A DNA stretch of 64,000 bases from Bispira polyomma (lineage: Eukaryota), in contig OZ287757.1 of the NCBI GenBank assembly GCA_965649765.1, forward strand, positions 29,016,001-29,080,000, given 5' to 3'. This document shows positions 7,480 to 55,520 of the stretch, piece by piece. A program made the translations under genes and the position numbers. Every line of letters starts with the position of its first letter. The stretch's first letter is position 1. The notes under the pieces were generated by a model that did no database searches, was not told the origin of the DNA, and worked only from the letters and a program-made list of their open reading frames with translations.

Positions 7480-8600
7480 TCAAAGTTAAAGATGAGACCA
7501 TTGTGTCGTGTTGGCCCAATCCAGCCTTCCCTCCTCCACTTCCTGCATATTTACCCCCCAGGCTGACCTGACAGCTGGCCAGGGTAATACAGCTGCGTCT
7601 CGGAATATGTAAATCATTTGATGCAACATCTGTCACATCAAATTGGGGTCGGATACCTGGGCCACGTTGGCAAGTTGTCTGGCTGCCCATTGGGGCATGG
7701 AGAGCTCGTCGAAGTTGGGCCTTTTCTTAGCTGTCCCCCCAGCCATCCCTCATTTGCCCAGCGTGTTTGGGGGTCAACTACATATACGTCGGTTGTGTTG
7801 TAGCGCTCAGATTTATGCCATAAATGGGGCTTACCTTGAGTATCGTAGGCCGCCAGTCTCTGATTCACTGCAGCATTCACTTCTAGGATCATTTTCATGA
7901 CGTCGAGGCGGGTAATAATACCATCCCGATGATAGTCCTGGTGATGTCTTAGATGTAAGGCCGTCTTGCCATAAGTGTATGGACGTAGATTCTTTAGTAG
8001 TGTCGGCACTTCTGGCACTGTAAGAACGGTATGTGACCTCATATCTAACATCGTGTCGTTACGCGTCTGGATCACAGGTGAAGTCATGGGTGTTGAATTA
8101 ACAGATCCCTTTGACTCGACTCTATTGAACCTCTTATTTATGTCAGCGCTGGCCAATTCTAAACGTTGTAAAATAGTCATTACCTCGCTAAATCCATCAG
8201 ATCCTCTTGCAGGCGTCGGACGTATATCTCTGGATTCCACTTCTGATAGTGGTTCACGTAGATTTTGCACTACCGGGTCCTTAATTTTGGCAGAAGCAGC
8301 CTTTCTTGTAGTTAGAGGTTTTCTGGCCTGAGGAGCACTGCCGGGTGTCTTTTTCGTTTTACCCATTATGTGTACATATATGGTTATACTATCTCAACGT
8401 AAAAACTAAAATCCTAAAACTTTATATGTAACCTTTAAGTAAAATATCCTTTTTCACACAATGTAAAAATTTTCAGTGTGGCTGGTTGAAGGTTAATAAA
8501 AATGGTGCCGGAATTTGGGGCAGCATATGATAAATCAGCAGGGGAAATGTGTATGATTGGCTCTTATGGTCATGCCTGAATAAGTAGAGAGAGAGAGAAC
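7480..8600 (-). mobile_element. Remnant (5' region + gag) of Ngaro-like YR retrotransposon E5
   Basis: ORF 7638-8366 starts MGKTKK and contains QRLAAYDTQGK..ERYNTTDVYVVDPQTRWANEG, homologous to E2 gag QRLARYE..LQGK..GRYNVSEVCVTDPMKRWPNEA. Confidence 0.7.
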
Positions 8601-12500: not shown

Positions 12501-12996
12501 AAATTTTGCCCTTAATCAATAGTTTTCTTTTTAAAAAGTTTGAAAACATCAATACAAACTCTACAAAAAATGGCCAAGAAAGAGACACAATTATTACCTG
12601 GATGCATTTTATGACGACCAGTACATCCCAAGATTTTGGGAATACAGTTCAAACTGCCATATATTTGGCATGAAGATTGTTTCTTTGATTAAATTACTAC
12701 TTAATAGTTGTAATACCAGTCTGGGTGAGGTTTTACAGTGGCAATTTATGATAAACTCAGAAGCATCAATTTCGCCCATTTAGATGTGGTGCCTATCGAT
12801 CCAATTTTTAAAAACTCAAATACTGGGATATTTGTTATGTAGTTTTTTTTTTCCTTTGCTACCAATCATCAAAGTGAAAGAATTTTTCAAAATCATAAAC
12901 TACAAAACTACGGTTATCAACAAAAGTAGAAAGGGTACATACCCGTATCAATGCTGATCCACATGGCAATAAAATGTGGGATTCTGCCGGTTTCCC
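9524..12996 (+). repeat. Local tandem duplication: ~1.5-kb unit (9524-11030, 11395-12903) plus partial units starting ~11031 and ~12904
   Basis: aaaactacggtt.tcaa.aaaagtagaaagggtacataccc recurs at ~9525, 11031, 11395, 12904; long near-identical blocks including a (TG)n tract; homologous fragments at 40.8-45.3 kb. Confidence 0.85.
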
Positions 12997-15575
12997 CGTA
13001 TGATTTTTTACAACTATCTGCAGGGTACAGGATTTTGGCAGAGGTAACTTTTCACACAAAAAAGGTTTACAAGTGTATAAATCTTCCACCAAAACCCAGT
13101 CTCACATGTGAATTAAAAAAATTTGATTTACATGATCAACTGTAATTAATGTACATGCGTAAATGTGACTGTGGCATACACCTGAAGAGGCATACCCCTG
13201 ACTGCCTTAATAGGAAAACAGACATTATGTTAAAAAACATGTGACTGTACACATGTACATTGTACAATGTGACTGTGTTGTTACTTCAGAGACTATCTTG
13301 CATACTATCTGAGCCAGTAACTCTACCGAGACAGACCTCACAATCTTACCGGATTGCAGGCAGAGTACCCATGTGGGAGTCAACACTTCACCTGTGATCT
13401 GGAGGCATAAATCGACCCAGATGAGCCCTACCAAGTTTAGCTCCACAGCCACCTCACCATATTTGAGTATGATGGATAAATTACCCACTTATGATCTTGA
13501 TTCCACTACTTGTTCCCCACCAGCTACACCTGGAAAGGAGTTGCCTTGCTATTATACAGCTGACTACTATCGGGAACAGGATAAACTGGACTACCTCTAC
13601 CCAAATCTGTCATGTTCCGGGACATCACCAACCTGGAGGACCCTCTACCTTCAGATCTACAGGATTTTACTCAGTGGGGCAACTTGCCCATTGACTCTAG
13701 TATCAAACAGTTTGACTTATTTGAGTGTTTGGAAAACATATGCACTGACTTATAAAAGGATATCTACCATCATAGGTATTATTTTTATCATTAGGTAGAT
13801 TACTATCAAATAATCTACTTTACTATAAGTTTTATTCATTATTTTTAAAAATATAGTATTATTAATCCTAGCATGGAAAAAAATTACTAAGTTAATATCT
13901 ATTTACTTTTTAATTTTATTCTAGTATATTTCCAGGAATTTTGTGTATTAAATACACCATCCATTGATGTTATTATAAGGTTTATACTTCATAAGTATTA
14001 AACATTTATGTACATTAAATACTGTTATTATCCATTTCCTCCTGTGTTATCCTATCTATAGGTCAGGAGTTTTATTACTCATGTAGTAAACTACCTAAAG
14101 CTATAAATGCCGCCCTCTTCCTATTATACTGATCGTTACTAATTAAGTTAACTGTGTTTCACAACACACTATTGGTGTATACAGCTGCCTATTAGTAAGA
14201 ATCACTAGAGCCACCCCAACTTGTCCAGGCTCACCTACTGGTCAATCCACAGATTACCCCAGTTACCAACGGTTTGAATTTAGTAACACCAGACACTACT
14301 GGTGGGCAACTACCTATTCAAGTGTAATTACCACTGGAGCCATCTCATCCTGAGGAGGCTCACCACTGGTCAACCCACTGGTAATCATGGCAAGTAATTT
14401 ATCACTTTGGTCAATCACATCTATTGTTACCTTTGTGCACCCCACCATATAGACAAATATCGCCAACCAGATATTAACCATTCACCTTCAAATAATGAAT
14501 TAGTGAATTCATATTCGTACACTACTAACCATATTTGAAGACTACCGTCAAGGTGTAAATACAGAATGTGTATAAACGCACTCACACACACTCACATTGT
14601 TTTAATTTGTGTATTACATGTCTATTCATCGTATAATTTAATAGGATTTGATGCCAGATTTATTGTCAACTACCTATATATTGAACTTAATTAAAACACA
14701 TATTAATGGGTTATCATTTATTCAGATTTATTCATTTATTTTTCCTTACAGGAGAATAAATGTTAAAAATTATATATACATAATATGTTTTTATTAATCA
14801 TTTATAAGTTTACTTCTTGCCTATTAATCCTATAATCAAAAAGGATTTGATACCAGATTCATTGTCAACTACCAATATATTGAACTCAATTAAAACACAT
14901 AATAATGGGCTCATCATTTATTCAGATTCATGCATTTATTTTTTCTCACAGGTGAATAAATATTAAAAATTATGTATACATAATATATAATATTTTATTA
15001 TGAATCACTCAAAAGTTGGCTCTTGGTATAGTACTCACCTGAGACCTATCCTGACCACCTAATTCAGTTTTAACATGATTTAGTGTCTCTACGATAAGTA
15101 TCTTTGAGTCAGAGCCCATTTAGAACTCTGCTCCACCCAGCTGCTCTGCCTGATCCGGCGGGGTCAGGCGGATTCTATTTTTCACCTTAAGAAAAAAAAG
15201 GTGAATTTTTTTACAGCCTCTGTTGAGAACACCCACTGGAGTTCGAAATATATTTTCGACCAATAATATATAAGGCAGTCAGTTTACTCCTGTCACCTAC
15301 ACCAAGTTCAAATAAACTCTTATAATATTCTATTGATATGTCAGTTGCCCATAAACAAGCTTCTGAAACTGTTGTTATGATGGATCTTACAGATGACTAT
15401 CATATTCTGTTTACAGTTAACGTCACTCTAACCTGAGGTATGGAGACCACCAGATTTGAGCTTAAGTTTGACTTGTGCTTGAGAATTATGAAGAATATAT
15501 TTTTACAATACTTGGAATTATCGAGATATGTACTGTTTAGCACTGAATAAACTCGTTCTTAACCCAGTTTATATA

Positions 15576-18500
15576 CTATATAACACCACAAAAAGGTTTC
15601 TCTTCAACACCACTATGTATTACCACTGGTCCGGCTGTCTTCTGAAGGACTTTCTTTCTTGAGAGAGGTATCACTAACAAGGACATCAGCCCACCAAAGA
15701 TGCCCAGGCCTCCAGTTACAAAGTAGGGTAGAGTATAGCTACCACTTACACGGTAGAGATACCCTATAAACAACAACATATACAAATGAGATACAAATGA
15801 GATGTATTCCTTATACTTCTCATTTATACAAATCACTGTGTCATCCGTGACGAATAGTCACCCTTTATGACCTTAAATATACATTCGTTTCATGTTAATG
15901 ATGTCTCTGTGACGTATTATTGTAAGAACATAACACAAAAGTTCTTCCAAAAATGTTTTAAACTGTTCAAAAATAGCGTGTATAAATTTGGATTAGTGAG
16001 AAGTGTGGATTCATTACATGTCACTGGCAGATTAGTGACCATAAGTGTACATTTGTTCCATGTCTGTAACATATTGGTGTCAAAAGGTAACACAAATGTG
16101 ATTTGAAAAGTTTGATATCAATATGTGACGTCAGAGAAAATCTACAGACAAATAGACTGGCCACTTTTGTTCAACTCAACGTAGGCTACATGTAAGATAT
16201 GAGACCAGGCCATTTGTAAGGTAACAGACTAGAAAACTGTGGTGAGGGCTGTGTGGGAGTATAAAAGGTCTCCTCTTTCTAAATTCTCCCTCCATTTGTG
16301 TTTACAGAAGAACAAGTATCAGAAATGATACGCAGCATTACTGAGATTTACAATTTTAGTTCTTATTATTATACTATCTCTAGTCATGCCGATTGTGAAA
16401 TTGATATATTGTAGCAAATTTCTACAAACACATGAAAGGCCTACGAGCAGAAATTGTTCTGTTGTACTGGGAAAGCCAACGGCGACCCGAGTGATAGTAA
16501 CCTGCTTGATTCTACTCTGTATCAAATAGTATATCTGTAAACTCTAGCAACGGCCCTAAGGGTAATACTGAGAGTAGCATTGTCCAAAACATAGATTTTC
16601 TTCAGCAAAATGTTGAAGTTCAGACCCAGGTTGAGCAAAGGCTCAAGTAGTCAAAGAAAATCAATGAGAACCCCTCGCAAGGTAGGGTTAAATCCTAATG
16701 CGGGGGAGGTAAGGAAGTTCTATTAAAAAAAGGCGATAGACTGAAATGTCAAGAATTGAATATTTTTGAAGTACACATGGTACTGCAGGCTGATGGACGT
16801 TACAATTATTCTGGCTTACAAATACCAGTTCAATTACAATTGCATGAAAAAAGTTTAAGAAAATTACTTATTGGGACTGGCAGCTATCACTCCTAATCAA
16901 GTACAGATTTCCTCCGGATTTTATCCGCAGTAACAGCATAGAATCACACGGTGACAACCATAAATGAGCCAATGAATGGCCAATGAATGTAAATTTGGAG
17001 CCATGCTTGGGCCCTTTGAGAATCCACCAATCAAAAATTTGAATTTTTCTTCCCTTATGACTAGGGACAAATCAAGCTCAGTCAAGAGGAGAGTGATAGT
17101 CGACCTCAGCTGGCCTCAAGGCGCTTCCCTTAATGCAGGGGTTTTCCCAACTTTATATTTAGGAACTGAATTCATTTTATTGTATGCCTCCATTGATAGT
17201 TTAAAGTATTTTGGGCGCTGTCAGATTTATCGTAAGGTCAGAGGGCCACGTTATTTAAAATTACATCAACGATTTGTGTGTGTCTCATTACCTAAAAAAA
17301 TTCGTACGACAAATCAGAATAGTTACTTTCTGAGCTTGGCTTAACATTAAGCCAGAAACTAGTTTCCCCAGATACAGTAGTGTGTTTAGGAATAATAATA
17401 ATACTGTCGAATCTACCATGTCCATACCAGCTGAAATTAAAGTTCTGTATAAAAAATGGGAGACCAAAACCCATTGTACAAAACAAGAGTTGCAATTCTT
17501 GCCAGGACTACTTCTTTATGTCAGAAAATGTATCAAGTACGCCCGGGTTCTTCTTAACAGAATGCTCAAATTGCTAAGAAATAATCACAGCAAAATTCGT
17601 TTTAAGGTAACCCCTGAATTTAAATGTGATTTGAACTGGTTTCAAACATTCATAGATCAGTTCAATGGGGGTCTTGTTTTTTTATCACAAGCCTGCTAAA
17701 AACAATATCATACTTTACAGGTATGGGAGGCATCCAGGCCAACCAAGTTTACCAAATTTAAATATCAACTCACATGCAAAATGACAACATTGCATACCTT
17801 GAGATGTTAAACATTGTTGTAGCAATGAAATTATAGCTGTGTTTTTAGTGGAAAAACCAGGGATTCAGTGCTGGCGACGTACACAAGAAAAATATATATG
17901 TTGGCCAGTCAGTCCGATATCAAGTTAAACGTGGTGCATATTCTTGGCAAAAAGAATCAAACTGCAGATCTGCTCTCCAGATGGACCGAGAACATAAATA
18001 ACCATTAACTCTTATTCTAGTTAGCATGACCAGTGCAATGGCTGGCCACACATGAGAGTATGTTGAAAGTAAACCATAACATTTAGTTATCCATATATTG
18101 TATTGTAATTGTAGATGCTAATGCCTTGGACACACTACTGACCAAGCGGGATCTTGAGAGACTGATAACAGCATTTGCACCTTCATCAGTCAAGGCTTAT
18201 CAACGAATGCACAAATCATTCTTAACCTATGGTGATTTCATGTCATTGCCTGCGTCTAAGGTGAATGTATTCCAATTGTTTTCCTATCTAGAATTTCTAG
18301 TGTTTTATGCTATCTCAGTCTCCCAAATTGCAAATAATCCGTCTGTCATCAGCCTTTGCTGATCCAGAGATCAGTTATACAGCTTTTCTAATCAATAGAC
18401 TTCTTCAGGCCAGTTGAAATGTTTATTTGATATTCCTCTTCTTAAAGCCTTGGCACAAAAGTGTGATTTAACTTACATGGGACAAGTGTATAAGGCAGTA

Positions 18501-21500
18501 TACCTAACCATTGTTTTTCAGTTTCTTGAGAATGTCTAACTTGTGCCTTCACTCAGAAAATGCTCTTTCACCACAAAAAAGTTGGATAGGGCAGATGTCA
18601 TGTTTAAACCTGGTCATGCAATGATCATGGTCATGTGGTCAAAACACTGCCATCAAATTGGTAACTTTGCCTGCCATGCTAGATTCGGTGCTTTGCCCAG
18701 TCAAAGCTTTAAAAAATGTGCTCAGTATTACACCGGCAAGCAAGAATCTGCCTTTATTCCAATACAAGATGGTCCAAAATTGGGTCTCATTCAAGGACAC
18801 ACTAGTTCACAAGCATCTGAAAAACATATTGCAAATGCTGGGTGTAACCCAGCCTGGACTGACTTTCTACGCTTTCCGATGTTCAGGTGCCACATTTGCC
18901 TTTAATAAAGTCCAATTACAAGACATCCAAAGAAATGGCACTTGAACATCAGACTGTGTCTAGCGATATATCACCGACTCTGCACACACTGTGGCCCAGG
19001 TGGCTGACTGTTTTAAACAGGTTCTACTTACTACCTAATCTCTGGTATTTGGTGGACTGACAAACCAGATTTGCCAGTGAAGTAAAGAACTTCAATATAC
19101 AATAATTTAAAATAATACTAGCTTTTGGGCATAAGTTTACCCGTAGTATTTAATACATTGCACTAATACTTTACGAGGGACCTCAAACTCTTCAAATCTA
19201 AATATTTCAAATTCAATTTAAGGTCACCTTATTATAAAAAAATATCTATCTTAAACTCAAGATATGGTAACCTCAAACTCAGCTCACGGTAACCTCACAC
19301 CTTTAGCTAAGGTGACCTTATGCCCATCCATAAATTATCAAAACTGTATATACTTCAACAGTAGATTTAATATAGAACTACCACATTTTAGCCGCACTTC
19401 TTTATTTCTCTATGGTAACTCATTAAGTAAATAACCTGAACCTGAACCCCGAGGCACTGAAAGCTAGAAAACCTCAAACTAAAAACTTGCAGTAAATGTC
19501 AGTGGAGGTGACTTACCGGCTAGTGGAGTCCCTATAAACTGACCAAGCCCTGAGAAGACCATCAACAGTCCCAGACCTCTGGCTAGTTTCTCTATACCAA
19601 CCAGGTCAACCAAAGCAGGCTGCTGTATTGTGGTAAAACTAACTGTAAATGACAAACATGAGTTGTCAGGCGCACAGTGTGAAATACACAAACGTTGCTA
19701 TGGTCACTATTTACTCGGGCCCAATTGGCAACCCTACAAATATTTATCTGACACCCCTCAGTTTGGACGGGTTGATTACTTTTAACCAATCCATGAATGC
19801 CTCAAATATTATTTCTACGATAGCACGTTATGGCAGTGTACATCCATGGCTGTACTCTCCAGAAAACTGAAGCTCAACCAAGTTAAAATCTGGGTCTCCA
19901 TATCTCTTGCTATAGTGAACTAAACTAAAGTCTACATTTTACAGATTAGAATTCAGTATCGAAAGACTCTAACTATAGTTACAACTTTCTGCAAATTGGA
20001 TATATTTGTATGTAAATTCTTGTACAGACGACAATGGAAGTCATTTTCAATAACCTTTTTATTTTGTTCTGAACAATAGTTACATAGTATTACAGTCTTG
20101 GGCAGTTAGTTAAGTCTTGATAAGAAAAATATTTCCAAATATTTATAATACGGAACAACTCAGACTTGTTGGGAATTTAAATATCACTTTTCATAACTCT
20201 TTAAAATCCACCATTTCTTAAGACCATTTTTTGAGTCTTATCTACATTTACTTTCATGTTCGATAAAGTATTATTCAAGAATATTTATCTGGTGTTGTAA
20301 CCTCCATACTAGGTCAGATAGTTGGCCTATATCATCTGCGTCTGATAACATAAACAACTTTGTACAATATTCATCTAGGTGTACTCCTTTACAATTTCCT
20401 TCAATACTCATTTCTATATAAGTATTTAAATACATTATAAACAATGATGGGGCTAAGCTTACATCCTTGTCTGGTGCCTATAAAACATTTAAAGAACTTG
20501 ATTAGTCCCTCGCGGGTATTGTTACATGCTGATAACTTTTAGTACATAGACTTAATCGATTAAACAAGAGAAAATGAAAAACCCTGTCAAATGCCTGAGA
20601 AATCAACAAATAAGCAATTAAAAACGGCCTCTTTTTTACAAAGATATTTACTAATTATTTCTTGAAGTACAAACATATAATTAATTCCCATTCAAATTAC
20701 TTGCGGTTCGACCGTTTACTATATGAATTCCTAATGTCGGACACATCCACAGCAACTCACATCCAAAGTTATTGCATTTGTCATTGGGATCAAAAGAGTT
20801 TCTGGAGTATAAAATGGCGATCCCTTTGGAGGAATGTAACAGCAGATCAAAACTGGAATTTGGATGTACACTGCTAACTTACTACTGATATTTTGTCTTT
20901 TAGTAACTTTAAATATATTAGTTTTTATATACCTCCATTCCAATGTCCAGTAACACCACAATGATATCCACTTAACTAATGATAACAATAGCCATCAAAC
21001 AGATCAGAAAATTGGTTGTCGAGAAATGTACATGTTTCAATAAAGCCTATAATATTCTATGTGTACATATATTCCTTGAACAAAAGGCCATGTTTCATGT
21101 ATTTTAGCCCTTGAACATTATAACTAATTAGTTTCAGTTCTTCTGCCTGTGTTTACCGAAATAGCCCTGGCCGAGGTGCTGTTTGGTGGTAAAAATGCTT
21201 ATTTAACAGCACTGCAATGATTTTTGGGGCAGGAAACAGTTAAATAAGTGTTACTGACAATGTGCTTTGGATAATAACTAAAAGCACCATAACGGTTATC
21301 TACCCACTACAAATTCTGACTTCACCGACTGAGCTATTAAGCTCTCACATGTTACTGATATGACTATATCTTACCTACTGAGAGAGATAGGAATCCTACA
21401 ATCACCATTATAGTTTCTAGTGTCCTTGCTGCACCAATGACTATCAAGAAGAGGCCCAGTCCTGTGGCAGTCAGACTGTGGAGGATAAGCTTGTTCCGTC

Positions 21501-23433
21501 TGAGAGCTGGTGTGGATGCCAGCACACCAAACAATGGTCCTAGCACAGCATTAGTCAGGCCGCCCACTGACGGTACAAAGGCTGCTTTATACTTGTCTAT
21601 GCCCTCACTTAGACACTTGTTGACAATGTGAAAGTTGTACACCGAGAAGTTCATGTTGACCGTAAAGGATGTGAAAGAAAAGAGCAAGTAAGACGGTTTC
21701 TTGATGAGATCTATAGGAACCAGCTGTCTCAGGTATATCCAGCATTTACTGGAGCAAGTAAAAGAGCAGTTTTTGTCGTCTGGCAAATGCAAAGGTTTCA
21801 GGAATGGTCGATATAGAGCACATAGCCAGACATTCTGCATAAATATGGTCGAGTAGAGTACCAAGGTGCCTCGCCAGCCCAAGTGGTCGACTGCATATCT
21901 AGTGCATGGAGGGAACACAAAGGTACTGATACTGAAACCAGCGACAGTAATACCGCTCACTAGGGTGCGTTTTTTGGTAAAATACTGCTGGACAACTGGC
22001 GACACAGACACATACATCACACCAAAGCCAGCACCTGTAGGCAGATTGTGATATTTATAGGACACCTACATTATCTGCAAGGTAAAGATAAATTAAAATA
22101 AAGTAAAGATTTTCTTTGACTCAGGACTCAACATACAAAGGTGAGAGGTGAAAGAATGTGATCTATACACCGGGACTCCTCTCAATGATCCTCACTATTT
22201 ATGTGACTGTTACTGGGTCGCCTCTAGATGGGATAAAACCCATTTCCGTTTGTTCCGAATTAGCCAATTGAGTGCTCTGTCCACTAAATTACAGTGACTT
22301 TAAATAAATAGTGGAACAGAAGGTAAATATTTTCTTGATTGCAAACAGCCAACTAGCATCATTCGCTTTCTTGAATATAGAGATTTGTACTTGTTGATGA
22401 CCATTTATCAACATCTCGAAAGGTATAGAACCCTGGTCTTCTGTGTTGCTAAGCAAGTGGAACACCATTTCCAGTGGTCAATCAAGCCACTATATATCTA
22501 GCTGGGATCGAAATCTAAGTGCCTGAATGTGTCCACTCACATGATCGCAGTGACTTACCAGAGAGAGTATAGCCCACAGTAAGCATGGTGATGTTGGTGC
22601 TGAAGGAAGCCAGAAAACAGGAGATCGATGCTACAAGTGCTCCACACATGGCTACCACACGCATATCTTTACGATGTAATAGGCTGCTACTCAGAAAACC
22701 TGTCAGACAACAGCCTTTAAAGTTACATATAGTTTGTTTAAATCCTACAGCATGCCATTTCTTGTTAGTCCTCTATGGAATCTTAGCAGTAAAACTAAAG
22801 ATCTGCTTAGTTACCCCAGTATATTGTACAGAACCTCCGGATAATGAACACCTCTATATAATGAATGCTTTTTCCCAGTTAGTGTTCTCTCTGTAGAATT
22901 TGAATCTAATTTCTTCTCTAGTCACTTTTAACAGCTTTCATATCGGAAAAACTAGATTTAATAGAGGAAGAAACCATTGCTGAAGCACTGTACCTGTATA
23001 AAGTACCTGGCAAATGTCTTCTCTCTTTAAAATTAGACTATAGTGAATTATCGAGTAGCTGTACTCTATCTTCCAAAAGAGATCAATAACGAGTAAAATA
23101 TCCTACCTAAATAAAATCCAACAGTTATACCAATATATGTCAATATTTTTTTATAATAGAAAACTATTTCTAGGTTTAATTCATCTGTATATGCAGGTTT
23201 TTACTACATTTACCTGCTATGTGTAAAGCAATGGAGTGATAGGCAGCTGCAGTGCCCACTAGAACCACATCAGCATCAAATTCATCCATATATTCCTTGT
23301 ACAGTACTGAGAAGGATGTGGAGAGGATGAGATCTGAGACGTAGTTAAAGAAACAGACAGCCACCACCACCCAACCATAGCCGCTGTCTGGTGGAGTGAT
23401 GGTTGGAAGGGACGCTTCCACTTCTACTGTCAT
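15576..23433 (-). CDS. SLC16/monocarboxylate transporter-like gene B; exons 23214-23433, 22559-22699, 21375-22034, 19517-19642, 15576-15763 (~444 aa)
   Basis: PDSGYGW and YFTKKRTLVSG motifs; GT-AG phase-1 introns; close paralog of gene A; open frame to TAG at 15576-15578. Confidence 0.9.
16100..19450 (+). mobile_element. Decayed Ngaro-like YR retrotransposon E3 in intron 4 of gene B (antisense to the host gene)
   Basis: gag remnant (VEQRLK..NENPSQGRVKS), RT (GAMLGPF..KRRVIVDLSWPQG), RNase H (LEMLNI..ADLLSRW), YR (FYAFRCSGATFAFN); many stops; boundaries approximate. Confidence 0.85.
19990..21130 (-). mobile_element. Decayed LINE RT/endonuclease fragment in intron 3 of gene B, interrupting the MITE paralogous to 803-1036
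   Basis: Minus strand encodes GTRQGCKLSPSLFIMYLN (RT motif) near 20430-20478; MITE left end at ~19848 and right end (aaatagccc) at ~21160 flank it. Confidence 0.7.
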
Positions 23434-24764: not shown

Positions 24765-25392
24765 TTAAGGAACTTTTATTTTGTGTTTCCAAAGGATTTA
24801 CCTGGAGATTTTATGTGCTTTCTTGGAATAAATCACACGGAGATCCTGCTGTGGAGTTCCTGACATGTTATAAGCTGTTTATGCTTGGATTTATACGCAT
24901 ACTGCTCTACTTGTTGGGGCTATGAATGAGGGCTGTATACTGTGATTTATGTTATCTTAACTGCTAGATTTTAATATTTTAAAGCATTTTTACATTATTT
25001 ACAAACACACCCTCATTCCATGTATATGCAGAAATCTAAGCACATTGTGCTATATTTCTATTTTCAGTAAAACTAACTAGACTATATATATATATATATC
25101 AGTGCAATCCAGTGCACGATGGTGCAATAATTTACACAGAAACACTGAACTACACAGGTGTCTGTATTTAAATCGTGGTGCAGGAGAATCATGTACAATT
25201 GTTTGTGATTACATATAAAAACAGTTAACACACGGTGTACCATGAAACCACAAACATTCCCAATTGTGACAATCCACACCAAGGTGTGAAACAAAATCTA
25301 GGCTGAATACAGGGTATTCATTAAGTAGTGGAAAAGACATTCTTTAAATAAAACATTACCGTAAAGTGACTAATAGCTACTTAGAGTGCATT

Positions 25393-26394
25393 ATGGCTCC
25401 TAGGAAGACATATGATGATGAGGCCTGCGGGTCTAACCATCAGAAACCAATCAATGAAAGATGTAGTGGTGAAAAACATTGTACCGGATGTTTCGGATGA
25501 CGAACCGGACATGTCATCTGCCCAGGTTAATAAACTGATCCTGCAGCAGCTCACTGACTTAAGTAGTCGTATGACTAAGATGGAGAAGAGAGCAGACGGT
25601 GCAGATGGTAGTGGTGAAACCAGCAGTGGCCAGACGACATCGCAGCTTCCCGCAGAAGTTCCTATGGCTGCCAGCAGAGACCCATTGGCTGACTTATTGG
25701 TGCCTTCCATACAGACACTGAGGCAGTCAACACACATCAAGGAAGCTGTGGACATCCGACTACGAGAACTGACCCGCATAAACGAATCAGGTAACTTTCG
25801 TTCCCAAAGGGGCGGGGCTGAGACAGTGTGGGTTAAACGGCAAGTACCTTGGCCGCAAAACTTTATACTGGGGGGGCAGACAAAATCTAGACTAGCTTAT
25901 GACAATCTCTCTATGGCCCAATGGGTCTCAGGTTTCACCAACATAATCCAAGAAGAACAAAATAGTGTAACTAAGGATCTCATGCTCGAGTACCTTTCGG
26001 AATTAATGGAGGATTGAGCCATGATTTTTCTTGGAACACGGCTAAAGGCACTCATGCAGTCCTCCTCTGTAAAAAGGATGAGGGCAAAGTTTCTTGGGAG
26101 GACACCCATAAAATCGATATGATCCGTAGGGCTCATGCCCAGAGGGTTACCACATCACAAAATTTCTCTAGTTAGGGCTCGAGTAGTAGAAAAAACACCA
26201 GTGAAAAAGGCAAACCCTCCAGATTTTTCCAGAAAGGAACTTGTCCGCAAAAAACTGACCATGAGTCAGGTGGTCAATTATATACCCATATATGTGCTCA
26301 TTGCTTTGTCGGAGGTAAAATCTACAACCACCCATCCAAAGATTGTAGAAAGTTAAACTCTGGGGGAGAAAAAACAAATTCAAAAAACGAATAG
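25393..26394 (+). pseudogene. E1 gag (frameshifted)
   Basis: MAPRK..CGSNHQKPINERC N-terminal motif, SQRGG..WPQNFIL..QWVSGF core, C-terminal Cys/His cluster (C..H..HICAHC..H..C); frameshifts near 25.47 kb and ~26015. Confidence 0.8.
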
Positions 26395-27124
26395 GGCACT
26401 ACAAGTCTGCAGTGCCCATTTTTTACTCCAAGATAATAACCAATGGGGTGGTTGCAGCTGCAGCAAGTGACAACTGGAAGGCAGATTGGGCAAGAGTTAA
26501 TTGCAAAACACACGCTGATAATGTAAAAATTAATAAGGTCAGTCAAAAGCCTAATTCTAGTTGCCACTTGAACTGTAAAACTTTAAATAATGTATCTAAA
26601 AAAGTTAACACTGTATTGTACAATAATAATGTGAGCAAATGTCACCTGGTTGAAAGCCAGTTAACAAAAAATTGTGTACCTAATGTATGTCAAAATAATG
26701 TAAAAAGGCACCTATTGCAGAGCAGCCGCAACAAGCAATACGGTAAGACTGATAAACCCACTAAACCCTATGTAAACAGACCAAACATCAACAAGAGTTA
26801 TGCAACCAAAATAGGTCAGACAACAGAACAATGTCCGAGTTCCCACAATAGGTTTGCACCCTTGGTAGAACATAGAGGGGATGGGGTGAACACTGACCCA
26901 AATATGGGGAACACTGAAAAAATCACAAGTACTGATACCAGTACAAGGGGACACAGTATTTTAGAACAAAATACACTCACTAGTAGTGAAGACAAATATG
27001 ACTTGCAGTTACAAGTTAAAGTCTGACATAGGGATACAATTGCACAAGCTAGCAGTAACTCTATTAACAAGCTATGGAATAAGCAAACACACAGTAAGTT
27101 TGGTTTTATACCTCTTGGTGACTT

Positions 27125-27336
27125 TTGTAGTCATTCCTCGCAAAGCATGGCTAGTCAGTCGTGAAGTTGTAATACCTTACTGTATTATATACTGTTTACC
27201 CAGATACACCAATCCTAGACCAGAACCTCTCTTACTTCACTACCAATCAAATCCTCTAGCTTTAAGTCAATTTCCCGCCTTTTCTCACATTTGGTCATTA
27301 TTAAGTTGCAAGTTAATGTAGCAACACCTTGAAATT
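27125..27336 (+). repeat. E2 split direct repeat A1 (partner A2 32615-32826)
   Basis: ttgtagtcatt...caccttgaaatt repeated at 32615-32826. Confidence 0.93.
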
Positions 27337-27505
27337 ACATTGGAATCGGCAAATAGAGCCGCCATATTGGAAATAACTGTTTGCATGAAGAGAAACAAGC
27401 TTATTTTATATTTATTAAACATTATTTTACCTTTTCGTTTAGTGATTTTAGTGAGTTTTAACTTTTCTCATCTTATAGTGTGCCTTTTGTGTTGGATATC
27501 TTATT

Positions 27506-28867
27506 ATGGGCCGTGCGAAGAAGAAGTCTGTGGCTTTGTGTTCACGATGTAATTTTTCACATTCTCGACCAGTGGGTACTAGGTGTCGGCTGGCCATTCA
27601 AGACGCCACGTCGGTCGCAGAAGCCAGCACAGGTTTTTCTACTGAAGTCCATGGTGCAGACGTTGAAACCAGCACGCTCAACTCCGTTGCTGACTCGAGT
27701 CACACTTCTGAAGATCACGTGAGTTTTGGTCAGTTCTACAAAGACGTTTTCACAGAGCAGCAGTCTATGATGAAAACACTAGTGTCCACGGTAGCTAAGT
27801 TACAGGAAGACGTATCCGACTTAAAGACGTCTCGTTCATCTTCCCCCCAGGTCTCGTCAACACCTCACACGATTAGGCCTCAGAGGGCGGCTCCACCTAA
27901 GCTTCCAGCACCGTTTACACAAAACATGGGTTCTTCTTTACCATTTACTCAGACCTTCCCTCAGCTTCAGAACCCGCCAGTGAACTACACAGGAGTCAAC
28001 GATCTTCGTTCTCATGTTTCTCATGACACTTACCCGACACGTCACAACAATCACTTCCCAGACACACGACCAGTTCATTTGCCACCTCAACGGGAGGGCT
28101 ACACACAGGACCACGCTCAGAGGTCCTTACAGGATGCAATCCTGCCTACTCCAGATGTATTAAAGCAGTCCGCTATGATACAGAACGAGGTGTCACAACG
28201 ATTAGCCCGTTACGAGGCGTGGGCCGCTGACGAGTCGCTTCAAGGTAAGCTCACTACTAAACGCAAATCTGGTCGCTACAATGTATCTGAAGTGTGTGTC
28301 ACCGATCCAATGAAACGTTGGCCTAATGAAGCATGTTTTTCTGGTGTGAGTAAGAAACGAGTTTCTTATGATGAGCTTACTGTGTCACAATTTGCTGCAG
28401 GTCAGTTGCAGAACATCTTAGAAGTGAGAAACCCTACTATTTCTCGCGCCATGTTAGTCCAGTTAGCAGATACTTTAAAAGATGCCTCTAATATCTCCTG
28501 GCAGATAGCCAGAGGTTCGTATGCATGTAACATGCACAATGTGGAAGAGGGGCGCCTCAGCTGGGTAGACGAAACTAGGTGGACAATGAACCGACTGTCC
28601 TATTCCCAGGCTTTAATTTCGAACGGCGCATCTTCAAATTCAACTTCCTCGAATTCCTCCTCGGCCACCGGAAAGCATGAGATGCCATGCAGGCACTACC
28701 AGAAGAATATGTGTCAGCATCAGAAAGACCATGAGGGCAACAACGCCATTTTTAAACACATCTGTGCCAATTGTTTTCGTTTGCATAAGAAGCACAATGC
28801 ACATCCAGAATCCAAGTGTTTTAAACTTCACGGACGCCCCACAGTGCCCACAAGCGCACCCCAATAG
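27506..28867 (+). CDS. E2 Gag-like ORF1 (453 aa)
   Basis: Intact ORF; N-terminal CxxC..H..C motif, coiled-coil region, C-terminal CRHYQ..C..H..HICANC..H..C zinc cluster. Confidence 0.88.
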   Translation: MGRAKKKSVALCSRCNFSHSRPVGTRCRLAIQDATSVAEASTGFSTEVHGADVETSTLNSVADSSHTSEDHVSFGQFYKDVFTEQQSMMKTLVSTVAKLQEDVSDLKTSRSSSPQVSSTPHTIRPQRAAPPKLPAPFTQNMGSSLPFTQTFPQLQNPPVNYTGVNDLRSHVSHDTYPTRHNNHFPDTRPVHLPPQREGYTQDHAQRSLQDAILPTPDVLKQSAMIQNEVSQRLARYEAWAADESLQGKLTTKRKSGRYNVSEVCVTDPMKRWPNEACFSGVSKKRVSYDELTVSQFAAGQLQNILEVRNPTISRAMLVQLADTLKDASNISWQIARGSYACNMHNVEEGRLSWVDETRWTMNRLSYSQALISNGASSNSTSSNSSSATGKHEMPCRHYQKNMCQHQKDHEGNNAIFKHICANCFRLHKKHNAHPESKCFKLHGRPTVPTSAPQ

Positions 28868-31437
28868 GGGTGCGGACTGTCGACAGTCACCACAGCCAGT
28901 GGTTATATACAGTATGTTAAACCGGATGTCGAGACTGCAGAGCAGGAGCATTATGAGAGCATGAACTTAAGACATGAGTATAATAAGAAAAATTTTGAGT
29001 TACTTAATGAAAGGAACAATTTTGTGTACAGTATGAGCTTTAGGGATGGACAGTTCTTAAATGATTGTTCTCGTGATGTATTCACGACAGATGGACAAGA
29101 TAATGTCTCGTGTAGTAGCAACTCCGCCTTATGTTCTGTTGGTCACAAGTTATGTCCACCAAAAGTTCATGGCAGTAGTAATTTTATTGCAACCTCGTTT
29201 CTGGTTGATTTGTATAGTAGTCACACTTATGATGTTCTTAAAGGCCCAGTGTATTATATTGTTTGTAATGCTGACTCCAGTGTGTCCGGTGCATACACTT
29301 GGTTTTTCTTCCAAGGTCAATGGTTTCTTCAGAAACATGACCTCTCTCTACAAAACATGTGGCCCATCAGTTTGGTTTGCACAGGTTCTGTACCTGTTTT
29401 ACTCAGAAACACTGCTTCATATACCAAAGTTCGACCTTTACCAAGACATAAAAGGGTCACTCATACCCGTACAAACATCACTTCTTCTGATTATTATATT
29501 GCCATCATTGACAACATTTGTAGTCGAACCACTCAAACAACATACGACAAGCATATAAACACACGTGTGGATGACAAGTTTCTTTCACGGAACCATATAC
29601 TAACTGAGGACACACATATAGTAACCAACATTCCACAGGACGTTGTATTACAGAACAGTGACATACAGCACTCTCCCATAATGGGAGAAATTGTGAATGA
29701 GGACATTTTACTCACTGACCAAAGAACTTATGGTTTCATCCCTCACGGGAGAAACCAATTTAACTTCATAGGACCAGACAGACAACAGGTAGACTTGACT
29801 TCTTATGATAAGTTAATTGAAGTAGCTGATATCATAAAGAACACTAAGGTACCAAACTACAGACAAGCGCGTTTTCCCATCAAAAGTGATCTCAATGTTC
29901 TCAATTGGAAGAAATACCTACTCGATTATCCGCATCAAATCGTTTTACAGTATGTAGAATTCGGTTTTCCTATATCTCAGTATGAGAGGGACAGACTGAA
30001 GGTCATAAATGTCAAAAACCATTCTTCCGCTATGGCTTTTCCACAAGCCATTGACAAGTATTTCCTTACAGAAGTAGCTAAGGGCACCATAATCGGTCCT
30101 ATTTCAGGAAAACTTCACCCGGATATACATTGCTCACCTTTATTAACGGTACCTAAAGATATTGATCAGCGTCGTTTAGTTCTAAACCTTTCTTACCCCC
30201 TTGGACAATCTGTAAATGATTGTACAATTAAAAATAAATATGATAACGTCGCTTTTAACTTAAGGTTACCTACCATTGATCAAATCACTACCCGCATTGT
30301 TGAGTTAGGAACTAAGGCCACCTTAGCGAAAGTGGACATCGCTCACGCATTTAGAAATTTAAGAATTGATCCTTTGGATTGTTTAAAGTTAGGTTACCTT
30401 TGGAAAAATAATTACTTCATTGATCTTAGTCTAACTTTTGGACTCACTCATGGCACGGCGGCCTTTATGATTATTTCTGATTGTATTACTTACATTATGA
30501 GACAGAAAGGATATATAGTGTACAACTATATCGACGATTTTATACTTGTTGAGACTGAAGATAAGGCCACCTTAGCTTACACTACCTAGGTCTCCCTATT
30601 AACGTCAAGAAATTAGTTCCCCCCAGTAAGCGTGTAACTTGCATGGGCATCACTATTGATATAGACCTCCAAACACTCAGTATTGAACAAACTAAATTAA
30701 CCTCTATATTTGACACATGTTTGGAATTTAAATACTTGCATAAAGTACGTAAACAGAAGTACCAGTCACTACTGGGAAAGTTGTTGTACATACAGCGCTG
30801 TGTGAAGAATTCTCGGATATTCATGAACAGAATGTTAACGTTATTACGGCAGTCTACTAGTAGTAAAACAGTATTTTTGACAAGTGACTTTCATAAGGAT
30901 TTACAATGGTTTTTAACTTTCCTCAGACAATTCAATGGTACGACTAAGTATACATACCTGGATAGTTCACATGACGTGTCATTACAAGTCTACGCTTGTT
31001 TATCCGGAATCGGTGGCATATCGGGTTTAGAAGTGTTCAAAGCTCCTCTACCATGTTTTCTTAAACAAACACTTTCCATTGTCCATTTCGAAATGGTCAG
31101 TATTCTCATAGCTTTCAAATTATGGGGTCATAAATGGAGTAATAAAAAGATTAAGATACAATCGGATAACATGGCTGTGGTGTCTGTCGTACAGTCATCT
31201 AGAACCAGGGACGACTATTTGGGTTTGTGTTTAAGGAACATCTGGCAGATCTGTGCCTTAAGGAATATTGACTTGACTATAAGACATATACCTGGCAAAG
31301 ACAACATAATAGCAGACGCTCTATCTAGGTGGTTTGAATTAGACCATTTTGACAACACAATAAGACAGGAACTCTTACACAACTTCATCATGCATGACAT
31401 ACCCATTGAATTTTTTACCTTAGATACTTATGTGTAA
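28868..31437 (+). pseudogene. E2 pol (RT + RNase H), broken by one frameshifting deletion at ~30586
   Basis: ORFs 28961-30589 (RRLVLNLS, KVDIAHAFRNL, LTFG, NYIDDF) and 30643-31437 (HFEM, SDN, ADALSR); LGLPINVKK resumes in another frame at 30586; in frame with gag across a single TAG. Confidence 0.9.
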
Positions 31438-31443
31438 TTTCAG

Positions 31444-32423
31444 ATCCCTCTGACCCAGCCTCCTCACTGATCAAAGGAGCTTTGAGACGGCTGAGACAAA
31501 GTCACAGACCTAGGACACAAAGACAATATGACAGCCAGTTTAGACTTTTCTTGAGCTTCACAGTTTACTTTGATTTAAAGGAAACTTTCTGCTTTAACAG
31601 CGTTATAGCTTTTTTGGAATTTATGACACAAACAGGTGTCTCCTACAAAGTATTGAGTAATTACTTATCTTCCATTAGGCACAACACAAAGATTCTCAAC
31701 ATTCAGCAAACTGGTCTTTATGACCCTAGATTGCCATTATACTTGAGGTCATTACAACTCACTTCCAAATACACACCTCGGGTCAAAGGGGTTTTCGATT
31801 TGCACCAATTACAACAGATTTCACAAGCTTGTAACCAGTTTCAATTTCCTGATTTATTCAGAACAGCTTTTTTGTTTGCTTATTTTGGTTTTTTACGCAT
31901 TTCTAACCTAACCACCACATCAGGTCTCCCCTTTGATCCTACCAGACACCTGACAAGGGCTGATGTGTTGTTCGCCCCTCCAGGCATTCACCTCATATTA
32001 AAATGGAGTAAGACTAACCAAACCAGAAAAAACCCAGACATCATACAATTACCAGAACTTTCAAACCCATGGCTCTGTCCTGTAAAGGCAGCCACTTCGC
32101 TTTTTCATAAACACCCTCTCCCTCCTTCTTATCCATTACTGGCAAACCCACTAAATAAAGACCAGTGCCTCTCAGACTCTAGTTTAAGGCACACCCTTAG
32201 CTCTATCTTAACACAGTTAAAAATCCCCAAAGAGGGGCATTCCTTCCATTGCTTCAGGCGCTCAGGTGCCTCCTTGGCATTTAATGCTAATGTTAAACTT
32301 CAGCATATCCAAAAACATGGATGCTGGAAATCAGATGCTGTTTGGTCTTACCTTCAATCTACCCCTCACGCTTCCTCAATTATTCCAACAACGTTCGCAT
32401 CCCTCGTCTCTTCTACTTTCTAA
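31444..32423 (+). CDS. E2 tyrosine recombinase (intact, no ATG at the start; predicted second exon of a Gag-YR fusion)
   Basis: Catalytic R (GFLRISN), K (KWSKTNQ), HxxR (HCFRRSGA), W and Y (HGCWKSDAVWSY); tttcag acceptor at 31438-31443. Confidence 0.92.
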
Positions 32424-32431
32424 TTTGGCTT

Positions 32432-32614
32432 TGGCATTTTAAAATTATTTCATCAAAAATAATTTTTTGTACAGTTGTATATAGAGACGAGTAGTTAGAA
32501 TAAAAATTATCCCAAACAGCATCTGATTTCTCACTCTCAATAACTATGGCCTTTAAAGGTCACACTTACCCCAGGGCAACATTAGTTCAATGTCACTCAC
32601 AACTCAAACGACTG
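32432..32614 (+). repeat. E2 split direct repeat B1 (partner B2 33402-33584)
   Basis: tggcattttaaaatt...caaacgactg repeated at 33402-33584. Confidence 0.93.
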
Positions 32615-35257
32615 TTGTAGTCATTGCTCGCAAAGCATGGCTAGTCAGTTGTGAAGTTGTAATACCTTACTGTATTATATACTGTTTACCCAGATACACC
32701 AATCCTAGACCAGAACCTCTCTTACTTCACTACCAATCAAATCCCCTAGCTTTAAGTCAATTTCCCGCCTTTTCTCACATTTGGTCATTATTAAGTTGCA
32801 AGTTAATGTAGCAACACCTTGAAATTCCCACCCACCACTTTCCCTTTTACTGTCTAAAGTTAAAGTGAATTTTAAATTTTTTCGGACTTAGATGGAGCTC
32901 AATAACCGTGTGGAAAGTCCTATCTCTTACCCCTCCTCTGAGTTCACGTTTAGGGTTCCAGGGTTGAAGAAGAGCTCTGTGAGGTAGGACTTTCTGCAGG
33001 CGAATAGGTGCCCAGCGTTTCGAGCTCCCATTCATTTTTAAATTTAAAACAAAATTCCTTAGCCAGTAATCACTAACTTAATTTTACTCTTCGGGACTCT
33101 GATATTCCGAGTTAATTTGTCGCCTGAATGCGTGGTTGACTTTAGTATACTATGTATGTCGCCTTTATGTGGTTGACTATATCTATTATTATAGTACATT
33201 ATCTTATGTCATTTATCTTAGTATTATTGTTTATGTCCTACGTCTTATGTAGTTGACGATATATTTTATTTGTTGTAGTATTCAACTTTATGTCACCCAA
33301 TTATGTGGTTGGCTTTTATCTTAACACTTTACATACGTTAAGGGTTATTTTTCCCCTTTCGTATTTTAGCCAGTTCTTGGTTCTTGTTCATGTAGCCATA
33401 ATGGCATTTTAAAATTATTTCATCAAAAATAATTTTTTGTACAGTTGTATATAGAGACGAGTAGTTAGAATAAAAATTATCCCAAACAGCATCTGATTTG
33501 TCACTCTCAATTACTATGGCCTTTAAAGGTCACACTTACCCCAGGACAACATTAGTTCAATGTCACTCACAACTCAAACGACTGAACATTGCCTGCTTTC
33601 AACAAACAAAAATCCAGTAAGGATACACCACTCCAAATCCACCACACAGTGCGCAACAGTGGTAAGCCAAATTACATGGGTGAACAAATTCTCCTAAAAT
33701 TGGAATTAAATCCGGATGTCTGGCAACGTCAACTTAGTAACTACTGGGACACCCAGCTTATTTATTTTCTAAAGTATGGTTTCCCCTTAGACTTTGACCG
33801 ACAAAGGGAACTCAGCCATGTTGAAGAAAATCATAAGTCGGCTACAGAATTTCCCAATGATGTTCGAGCATATTTGGCTGAGGAAAAAGAACATGGGGCA
33901 AAAATGGGGCCATTTAGCACCCCTCCCATCTCCTCTTTACATATCTCACCATTCATGACTAGGGAGAAGCCTGGTGCAGCTCGTCGTCGGGTAATAATAG
34001 ATCTGAGTTTTCCAAAAGGTAAATCAGTCAATGCTGCAATTGAAAAGAGCAAATATCTAGGTACTGATTTCCTTCTAACTCTACCAACAGTCGATGACAT
34101 AACAAAGTAGCAAAACTCGGAAAAGGCACCCTCATATACAAGCTAGACATAAGTCGGGCATTCCGACATGTAAAGATTGATCCGGCAGACTATGACCTTC
34201 TCGGACTCAAAATGGACGACTACTATATAGATACGTGCCTGCCGTTTGGCTACAGGCACGGAAGCGCCATTTTTCAACACCTCAGTGATGCCGTGCGTTA
34301 CGTCATGCAAAGACGCGGCTATGACGTCATCAATAATATCGATGACGTCATTGGATACGGGCCCACAATTCATATGACAACCTGTACAAGCTCTTGCAAG
34401 AATTAGGTTTCGAAATCAGCAAGAAAAAGATAGTAACACCTACCACTAGGGTCAATTGCTTAGGCGTGCTAGTAGACACACAGAAATTTGCAATTGAGGT
34501 CCCTCCCCAGAAATTAGCTGACACTATTCAATTGTGTAAAACCTGGCTGAGTAAGACCAAATGCACAAAAAGAGAATTGCAATCACTCTTGGGTTCATTA
34601 CTGTATGTGGCTAAATGAGTCAGAGTAGCCAGGGCATTTTTAAACCGCATGCTTGACATATTACGCAATATAAGTGATGAACGTAATGTTAAACTAGATG
34701 TGCAATTCTTTCAGGACCTCATATGGTTTGACAAATTTCTCAGTAAATTTAATGAGGTTGCATTCTTTGACCATGCCCCAGTCACTGATCATATAGAGCT
34801 AGATGCATGCCTTACAGGCCTGGGCGGTAAATGTAACAGTTTAGTGTACACTAAGTCAGTCTCTCAGGGCTATCTAAATTTTACCATCGTCCACCTTGAG
34901 ATGTTAAACATCCTGGTGGCAGTCAGATTGTGGAAGCACCTCTGGGCAGGCAAAAAACTTATGGTCCACTGGGATAACCAAGCAGTGGTGTCCATCCTCA
35001 CCTCAGGCAGGACTAAAGATCTAACATTAGCAGCCTTTGCGCGCAACATCCTGATGGAAGTGGCGGGCGCCGATATAAATTTAAGAACAGTCCATATACT
35101 AGGGAAAAATAATCAAGCTGATCTGCTTATCTCTTATCAAGATGGCACATGACAGCTCATAACGAGTACAAATTAAGACAAATTATACCTCACCCTGAAT
35201 GGGTGAACGTTCCAGACCAATTACTGGACATTGACTGGAGTATATAATACATTTCAG

Positions 35258-36248
35258 GTCTCCCTTCCCTGGCAGCCCTCCTAGCAGCTCAGGCAGCCAA
35301 AAGAGTCCACCAGGCATTTAGGCCTACAACCCAACAAGCATATAAGGCAATGTTCAGGCTATTCTTGGCTTACTGCTGCTTTATTCAAATAAAAATTCAA
35401 GATACAACTCCTCTGCTGCTCTTGTCATTCCTGGAATTTTTGGCAGTGGGAAAAATGTCTCATTCCTCTATTGTTAATCACATGACAGCCATTAAAGCAA
35501 AATTTTCAATCTATGGGTTAGACACTACCCCTTTGAATGACCCACGTATTACATATTTCAGTAAAGCCCTCACATTACACAAACCATTCAAGGCAAAAAT
35601 CCACAAAATTATTAACATTGATCTCTTAACTCTCATTAGTAAGGTATGTGACTCAATGTATATGGGGCAAGTTTTCAAAGGATCTTATCTCCTGGCATTT
35701 TTGCCTTCCTTAGGATTTCTTATCTTGTACCTCACTCCTCCTCCTCTACTTACTCTCCCTTTCATCAGCTGGCCAGGGCGGATGTGCTTTTTGCTCCTCC
35801 TGGTCTCCACATTATCATCAAATGGACCAAAACACTTCAGGCCAAGAACACATTTAAGGTCCTTAAAGTTCCTGCCCTTCTTAACTCACCTATCTGTCCA
35901 GTGACAGCTATTAGAAACATCCTGGCCATCACCCCTGGCTCAAAAAATGATCCCTTATTTTAGTACAAGCAAAATGCCTCTTGGGGTCCCCTCACAGACT
36001 CAAGACTGCGTAGGAACCTCCATACAATACTCATCAGATTGGGTTTGAATGAATCCCCCATCACATTCCATGACTTTCGCCGCTCTGGCGCGACCATGGC
36101 TTTTAACAACAATGTCCCCTTGCAGCACATCCAGAGTCATGGAACCTGGACATCTGACTGCGTTTGGCGGTACGTGACCTCTGACCACAAGGCATCCGGT
36201 AAAGTGGCCCTCTCCTTTCAAACCCTTCTCACAACTCCTACTTCCTAA
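35258..36248 (+). pseudogene. E1 tyrosine recombinase (frameshifted)
   Basis: AFRPTTQQAY N-terminus, KWTKT, CPV, FHDFRRSGATMAFN..HGTWTSDCVWRY; frameshift at ~35710 and an internal stop. Confidence 0.88.
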
Positions 36249-55150: not shown

Positions 55151-55267
55151 CTTTGGCTATGAGCGGTAGGAGACACCTTTTACTAATTTGACCAGATCAT
55201 GTAATACAGGAATTAACCTAATCTAGTGTAGAACCAGTGATTTCAAACCTTGATTAAAGCATGACCA

Positions 55268-55520
55268 ATAGGATCAATGGTCACAGAGAAATCAGTAAAA
55301 CCAGTGTCAACACCTGCAATGAAATGATCCATAAGATCAAAGGTCACAGACAAACCAGTAAAACTAGTGCCAACACCTGCAATGAAATGATCCATAAGAT
55401 CAAAGGTCACAGAGAAACCAGTAAAACTAGTGCCAACACCTGCAGTGAAATGCTTCATAGGATCAAAGGTCACAGAGAAACCAGTAAAATCAGTGCCAAC
55501 ACCTGCAATTAAATGATTCA
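55268..55520. repeat. Minisatellite, 63-bp unit x ~4
   Basis: gatcaaaggtcacagagaaaccagtaaaactagtgccaacacctgcaatgaaatgatccataa repeated. Confidence 0.9.

Follow-up and report, generated by a model that had tools for sequence, protein, structure and literature searches.

The 64,000-nucleotide (nt) stretch of the Bispira polyomma genome analysed here (the window; assembly GCA_965649765.1, contig OZ287757.1, positions 29,016,001 to 29,080,000 of the forward strand) contains a retrotransposon, named E2, in which the gag-like and pol open reading frames (ORFs) share one frame and are separated by a single TAG. Comparison with related copies indicates that read-through of this UAG very probably yields Gag-Pol in the E2 clade. 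If so, the stimulator is quite likely a predicted long-range helix joining the bases just past the stop to the RNase H coding region about 2.3 kilobases (kb) downstream. We consider the complete explanation, UAG read-through stimulated by this helix, to be likely.

The junction reads CCC CAA TAG GGG TGC at 28859-28873 (window coordinates, + strand unless stated otherwise), with the TAG at 28865-28867. The ORFs at 27479-28867 and 28868-30589 are in the same frame with this one stop between them, as an earlier note on this DNA had described; a 14-nt palindrome, GACTGTCGACAGTC, is also present where that note had placed it, at 28875-28888 after a 7-nt spacer. The predicted leaky stop context, CAA-TAG-G plus the spacer, occupies 28862-28874 and is suggested by sequence and conservation. 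The earliest in-frame ATG after the TAG is located at 28961 and is preceded by three ATGs in the +1 frame (28914, 28926 and 28953).

In the sequences compared, the whole clade has gag and pol in a shared frame that a TAG interrupts. Of 30 E2-family loci (two of which form one tandem pair), 29 have retained TAG and one has GAG. A pattern combining a gag C-terminal motif with AATAGR gave 213 genomic matches, spanning, on visual inspection, upwards of 20 sequence families, against 1 for the reversed control. When the stop was not required, 87 of 100 matches listed out of 179 (counted by eye) had TAG in the homologous position, the other 13 being 1 TAA, 2 unrelated matches, and cases with a single substitution, a deletion or a truncation; with a second pattern of this kind TAG was present in 81 of 82. 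No TGG was found at the stop position: the AATGGR search gave 7 matches (positions read from the listing), of which six end within gag codons of one family and one lies 3' of a TAG. One of these six visibly runs on to CAA TAG, and the rest were judged by likeness. An AATRAR search gave 6 matches (control 7), of which about two, one TAA and one TGA, lie at the stop position. A nonsense mutation specific to one copy was ruled out by the conservation of TAG in the 29 E2 loci and the 213 matches. An altered genetic code was ruled out by reasoning, from the 863-codon pol frames that contain no TAG and from a sister clade, described below, in which TAG closes frame 0. A second element in the window, E4, is a decayed member of the in-frame clade whose gag ends in CAA TAA GAC (57962-57998, from comparison with sister copies). 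The earlier note was right that E4 has TAA at the equivalent place, but this codon lies at 57965-57967 and is a decayed TAG, since the eight aligned copies of the family have TAG in six, AAG in one and TAA only in the window copy. No relatives with DNA from outside this genome were found among metagenome contigs or viral contigs, and the 11 gag homologues are available as protein only.

The frame following the TAG is open as well. Of 13 long E2-family copies, 6 have it uninterrupted for 863 codons, through RNase H, and families A, C, V and S include copies open for 500-730 codons from TAG into the reverse transcriptase (RT) region. Many other copies are broken, and the pol frame of the window copy itself is interrupted by a deletion near 30583. 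The -1 frame closes within 2-29 codons after the TAG in this clade and pol is in frame 0, so this is not the layout of a -1 frameshift. ATG 28961 is kept in 26 of the 30 E2-family loci. In a survey of 11 families with 2-34 copies each, the earliest majority in-frame ATG was found at codon 10-202 in ten of them, with 0-8 out-of-frame ATGs ahead; family P, examined over 23 codons, has no ATG there. Majority stops ahead of that ATG (766 codons) number 0 in frame 0, 38 in frame +1 and 125 in frame +2, the zero being partly by construction because the reference is the longest open copy and the range its open length. That the frame, the stop-free linker and the TAG are conserved in other copies, and the position of the pol ATG is not, strongly supports the read-through that the earlier note had proposed.

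The bases around the stop are those of a read-through context. Among 32 family representatives, A is present at -2 in all, A at -1 in 29 and G at +4 in 29 (family V has T at +4), although these were filtered for TAG and most were picked by a pattern requiring part of the context. E2 and family A have the UAG-GGR form of this context (UAG GGG in E2, UAG GGA in family A). Of the two features of the type III signal of Beier and Grimm, UAG-G is present, and the downstream structure would be the predicted covarying long-range helix described below. Local folding gives a different picture. The 101 nt from the E2 stop fold no better than chance (z = -0.5; 57 of 200 shuffles as good), no conserved local fold was detected over the 32 representatives (mean z of -0.02 for 57 nt and +0.27 for 97 nt), and the GACUG/CAGUC stem folds in three of them. 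The local hairpin, which had been put forward as the stimulator, was ruled out on this chance-level folding and this stem count. The compact local pseudoknot that gammaretroviruses have 8 nt past UAG was not found in the E2 clade; the folding method does not model pseudoknots, and the conserved bases are accounted for by a distal partner. Synonymous divergence is indeed low in the 20 codons after the stop (0.24-0.54, compared with 0.63-0.96 for gag, in all eight between-family pairs), presumably because these bases form one arm of a long-range helix. A protein constraint on the post-stop peptide L-x-T-x-T-T was ruled out, this peptide being the antisense image of RNase H codons.

The predicted 5' arm (28875-28906) begins at the eighth base after the E2 stop and includes the palindrome. 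It consists of 28875-28880, 28881-28886 and 28888-28898, which make a core of 23 base pairs (bp), and of an extension at 28902-28906. The predicted 3' arm (31166-31196, core 31172-31196) lies within the RNase H codons D-N-M-A-V-V-S-V-V-Q-S, with the Asp codon at 31165. Between 28875-28898 and 31172-31196, which are 2.3 kb apart, the pairing comprises segments of 6, 6 and 11 bp, the first two separated by a one-base bulge and the last two by a mismatch, and the two-arm fold reaches -47 kcal/mol versus -13 and -9 for the single arms. When the best partner of the 33 nt past the stop was sought in 11 families, a single homologous site was obtained, 647-668 nt past the RT YxDD motif in all nine families in which YxDD could be located; for the other two, a locus survey pointed to this RNase H site as well. 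This survey covered 70 loci with at least 3 kb past the stop, the RNase H site being located in 53 and not in 17, and the site was the best partner in 48 of the 53, including 15 E2-family copies. In two E4 sister copies it ranks first of 136-137 windows. The distal arm of E4 itself was missed by the script and was recognized by eye, decayed, at about 60820-60855. In the reverse scan, 13 of 14 representatives had the bases past the stop as the best partner of the RNase H arm, and in each of five elements no other long-range window pair, out of 11,476-13,203, was as strong as the stop/RNase H pair.

The two arms appear to have changed together. In 12 families, cognate arms have a mean energy of -33.9 kcal/mol versus -23.3 for mixed pairs (reached by none of 100,000 permutations), and 151 of 180 cells are paired in register versus 48-109 in slid registers. 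At least two Watson-Crick pair types occur in 8 of 14 columns, i.e. compensatory changes; base 15 pairs as G-C, A-U, U-A and C-G across families, and base 21 likewise. Paired cells amount to 132 of 168 versus 105 +/- 5 in shuffles, a value reached in 0 of 20,000 shuffles and in 1 of 50,000 when nine deep lineages are used, but the families are related and the shuffles thus overstate significance. Bases 8-13 past the stop are predicted to pair at P >= 0.82 in all 12 families. A stop-proximal element that pairs with a distant one, with compensatory changes, is what is expected of a bipartite signal, and the predicted helix has this form.

A sister clade provides a control. E2 interrupts an older element (25385-36218, with the boundaries of its halves at about 27100 and 33586) where the RT region of the latter begins. 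The gag of this older element ends in A AAA AAC GAA TAG followed by a local hairpin (26382-26416; TAG 26392-26394, hairpin 26395-26416), and its pol lies in the -1 frame, so that this gag end is a candidate -1 frameshift site. Sixteen loci of this clade were fetched and both sites were located in 13 (L201-L212 and L215). In these 13, frame 0 closes after 13-18 codons and the -1 frame is open for 61-591; A AAA AAC is present in 12, and a hairpin directly past the stop differs in sequence by subfamily. As a partner, the RNase H site is placed 40th-130th among about 135 windows, and the pairing is present in 0 of 13. No post-stop partner was obtained in the reverse scan in 6 of 6 elements, and the strongest long-range pairs (-30 to -35 kcal/mol; five copies scanned) are common only within subfamilies. 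In an unrooted RT tree of 29 rows from this genome, 18 frame-0 rows are split from 11 -1 rows at 100/100. Rows of less than 150 residues, among them E4, were dropped, and two rows were labelled -1 by likeness alone. As the tree is unrooted it gives no direction for the frame switch, and it amounts to one contrast. A literature search combining Ngaro, the type of element to which E2 belongs, with ribosomal frameshifting found no account.

Several points weigh against read-through stimulated by the helix. All DNA comparisons were drawn from one genome, and the association of frame 0 with the helix is a single contrast of two clades. Five of the 53 loci fail the best-partner test (L150, L152, L166, L188 and L191), families L and W2 being represented by single failing copies only, and the cognate pair is the best of its row in just 6 of 12 families. 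Some families also show predicted pairing within the spacer, at bases 1-7 (mean P 0.00-0.95). Folding the isolated arms as two strands overstates the ease of closing a 2.3-kb loop. The ratio omega is 0.36-2.0 in the first 20 codons past the stop, where amino-acid constraint is not evident. Together with the partly constructed zero in frame 0 and the relatedness of the families in the shuffles, account must be taken of the retrotransposon Tca2 of Candida albicans, whose in-frame junction, with a predicted pseudoknot, gave no read-through in a reporter, according to the part of the report available (PMC2194720).

We propose that most ribosomes would stop at UAG and release Gag, and that a minority would insert an amino acid and produce Gag-Pol. 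The UAG would be decoded by a near-cognate tRNA, helped by the A's at -1 and -2 and the G at +4. The predicted helix of about 23 bp, which starts eight bases past the stop and, by pairing with RNase H codons, encloses about 2.3 kb of RNA, would form in vivo and act at the mRNA entry of the ribosome, slowing it. Ribosomes translating pol would unwind the helix, and output may thus be self-limited. On balance, we also lean towards a broader picture, with somewhat less assurance: this animal retrotransposon clade would set its Gag/Gag-Pol ratio by a kilobase-range helix with its far arm in the sequence coding for the RNase H active site, only full-length unspliced RNA would make Pol, ribosomes in pol would turn the signal off, and DIRS-order elements would alternate between -1 frameshifting and long-range-stimulated read-through, a class of signal that has until now been tested in plant RNA viruses.

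Splicing enters this picture through the recombinase, which is predicted to be made from a phase-1 splice (28244 to 31444) fusing 246 Gag residues in frame. The predicted donor in gag (28241-28250) ends the exon of the Gag(N)-recombinase mRNA at 28244, after 246 codons, and the predicted acceptor (31438-31443) lies ahead of the recombinase. G/GTAAG occurs in phase 1 in 65 of the 69 loci in which the donor site was located, and a similar acceptor is found behind pol in the -1 clade. In contigs of two of three sequencing runs (type unrecorded), no joint from 28244 was present among 15 joints listed of 17. Both helix arms are inside the predicted 3.2-kb intron (28245-31443), and the predicted splice would remove both.

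This location bears on the alternative in which the local CAA-UAG-G alone causes read-through and the helix serves elsewhere, for instance in packaging of the RNA, in reverse transcription or as a bridge across the intron. With both arms in the intron the helix would shorten it, and all 32 representatives carry A at -2 and 29 carry G at +4, although most were picked by a pattern that requires some of these bases. We nevertheless hold this unlikely, since type III contexts are weak without downstream structure (PMC13517186, in part), the 5' arm is fixed relative to the stop at base 8 while loop length varies, and the -1 clade has a similar acceptor yet neither the helix nor any long-range partner common to the five copies scanned. 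It would be more surprising still if ribosomes terminated and then re-initiated, with or without an ATG, to make a separate Pol, the helix holding or positioning the ribosome. E2 does have an in-frame ATG 31 codons downstream, which 26 of 30 loci retain, and LINE-1 ORF2 is a case of re-initiation independent of AUG. Across families, however, that ATG wanders from codon 10 to 202 with up to 8 out-of-frame ATGs ahead of it, frame 0 is open directly from the stop, the preference for TAG over TAA and TGA is left unexplained, and UGGGA, the calicivirus-type re-initiation motif, is absent upstream in E2 and family A. These facts make re-initiation improbable.

Equally poor, in our estimate, are the prospects of a Pol translated from an mRNA that is spliced or starts internally, with TAG/G, or CAG at bases 17-19 past the stop, as acceptor. 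TAG/G matches a YAG/G acceptor, the elements hold other conserved splice sites, and the Tca2 junction has a minor promoter (PMC2194720, in part). Yet a pyrimidine tract is lacking (T makes up 10% of positions -5 to -20 in the 32 representatives), an extra AG occurs upstream in many families, and the phases disagree, the gag donor being in phase 1 and TAG/G in phase 0. Moreover, families H and P have lost the AG at 18-19 and retained the pairing, and no donor-to-linker junction was found in 30 loci. Finally, the helix might recruit ADAR, the UAG being edited to UIG and read as Trp, for which the amber/W site of hepatitis delta virus is a precedent. The stop is always UAG beside a long duplex, and its predicted pairing in 4 of 12 families would suit such a mechanism. 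Editing is disfavoured because reverse transcription of edited RNA should leave TGG copies and none was found, against 213 TAG copies and among 182 listed junctions; we regard it as the most improbable of these explanations. Read-through stimulated by the long-range helix is preferred to all of them.

From its domains and its repeats, E2 is an Ngaro-type (order DIRS) tyrosine-recombinase retrotransposon and no retrovirus, with Pfam matches for RT and recombinase that are below curated cut-offs. The comparison with gammaretroviruses made in the earlier note thus holds for the UAG-G context and not for the nature of the element. Among 18 ORFs scanned, the Pfam matches in E2 are, in order, RT, RNase H-like and tyrosine recombinase, all weak, and no match was obtained for methyltransferase, protease or DDE integrase. 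The repeats are split direct repeats in the order A1-ORFs-B1-A2-B2. A1 (27120-27336), at the 5' end, is 98% identical to A2 (32610-32826), and B1 (32432-32614) is 98% identical to B2 (33402-33584), the 3' set covering 32432-33584 with 575 nt between A2 and B2. The gag-like ORF1 (27506-28867) has a C-terminal Cys/His region, ends in CAA TAG and belongs to no Pfam family; its 11 homologues show 34-41% identity. Pol continues in the gag frame (28868-30589) with about 280 poorly conserved linker codons followed by RT (RVT_1, E 2e-4, under the curated cut-off), which carries a YIDD motif. The remainder of pol, i.e. the RT end and RNase H (30565-31437; RVT_3, E 1.5e-4), stops at a TAA (31435-31437), 90 codons past the RNase H Asp. 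This end fits the absence of a methyltransferase, the trait that sets Ngaro apart from PAT and DIRS1. A search of the PDB with the RNase H part gave three matches, all at chance level. The recombinase ORF (31410-32423; Phage_integrase, E 7e-4, under the curated cut-off) has no ATG near its start.

Some further observations concern E2 and its surroundings. A pyrimidine-rich stretch at 27460-27478, ending in AG and 27 nt 5' of the gag ATG, is a possible acceptor of an intron in the 5' untranslated region. Locus L042 (G000:C10:43638200-43647900) contains a near-identical head-to-tail pair of E2-family elements with a spacing of 5,192 nt. Locus L246 (G000:C2:41186932-41190131), a copy of the E2 family, has an internal deletion joining the equivalents of window positions 28660 and 32124, which differ from the predicted splice sites. 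Decayed pieces of related recombinase retrotransposons are found elsewhere in the window (7495-7946 on the - strand and 17481-19035 on the + strand). Three similar MFS transporter exons on the - strand (1280-1996, 21364-22065 and 47849-48562) lie in a host gene region tandemly duplicated with a period of about 20 kb, and tandem arrays of 51-nt and 63-nt units are located at 49593-50357 and 55261-55575.

The comparisons that follow rest on those portions of the cited papers that were available. Ngaro elements have the layout A1-ORFs-B1-A2-B2 (PMC8547959) and share with E2 gag, RT/RNase H, a tyrosine recombinase, split direct repeats and the lack of a methyltransferase (PMC8547959, PMC3783388, PMC9210276, PMC4157794). 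In these portions, separate or overlapping ORFs are described and no mechanism is given for pol, whereas here one clade is in frame across a TAG and another is in -1. In the literature covered, the expression of pol in DIRS-order retrotransposons is unsettled, and the present finding supplies a precise signal that can be tested. No account of a long-range helix or of read-through in Ngaro or DIRS elements was found in the available text of sources including PMC8547959, PMC3783388, PMC7192593, PMC5009743, PMC4157794, PMC9210276 and PMC6681497; subscription papers and Repbase were outside the scope of this search and may mention in-frame stops. Read-through between gag and pol and bipartite signals are each known, and their union in an animal recombinase retrotransposon appears to be new. 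Natural compensatory variants are provided by about a dozen families, and the frameshifting sister clade is a control. The distal arm would be missing from a reporter limited to 28850-28930, so that a negative result could be false. More generally, short junction reporters can miss long-range signals, which may bear on Tca2. Tca2 resembles E2 as a retrotransposon whose gag and pol share a frame interrupted by a single stop; it differs in having UGA and in being a long terminal repeat (LTR) element with an integrase, and no distal partner is mentioned in the available part of its description (PMC2194720).

Moloney murine leukemia virus (MoMLV) resembles E2 in its in-frame gag-UAG-G-pol and in a structure, predicted in E2, that starts about 8 nt past the stop (PMC3159437, PMC13517186). 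In MoMLV this is a compact local pseudoknot, whereas E2 has a predicted long-range structure, no LTRs of that type, and no protease or DDE integrase detected. The spacer is at least 8 nt in MoMLV and alphaviruses (PMC13517186) versus 7 nt in E2. A's at -1 and -2, type III UAG-G and, in Tombusviridae, UAG-GGR are described as read-through contexts (PMC3159437). The tombusvirus CIRV has, like E2, UAG-GGR and, as predicted for E2, a kilobase-range pairing, PRTE-DRTE, with a read-through that gives the polymerase (PMC3234231). In CIRV, a local stem-loop pairs with an element of the 3' untranslated region over 3.5 kb and the signal is coupled to replication (PMC3234231); the E2 clade has no conserved local stem-loop, and its predicted partner is RNase H coding sequence. 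Potato leafroll virus (PLRV) and pea enation mosaic virus 1 have, as predicted for E2, a simple helix between a stop-proximal element and a distal one within the downstream coding region (PMC9553062), and the PLRV-type context AAA-UAG-G (PMC3159437) resembles CAA-UAG-G. The PLRV loop is about 670 nt, serves a capsid extension and was tested experimentally (PMC9553062), whereas the loop of the E2 clade, about 2.3-2.7 kb, is predicted from sequence and would serve a retrotransposon Gag-Pol. If the explanation proposed here is true, long-range read-through signals reach beyond plant RNA viruses to the endogenous elements of an animal genome.

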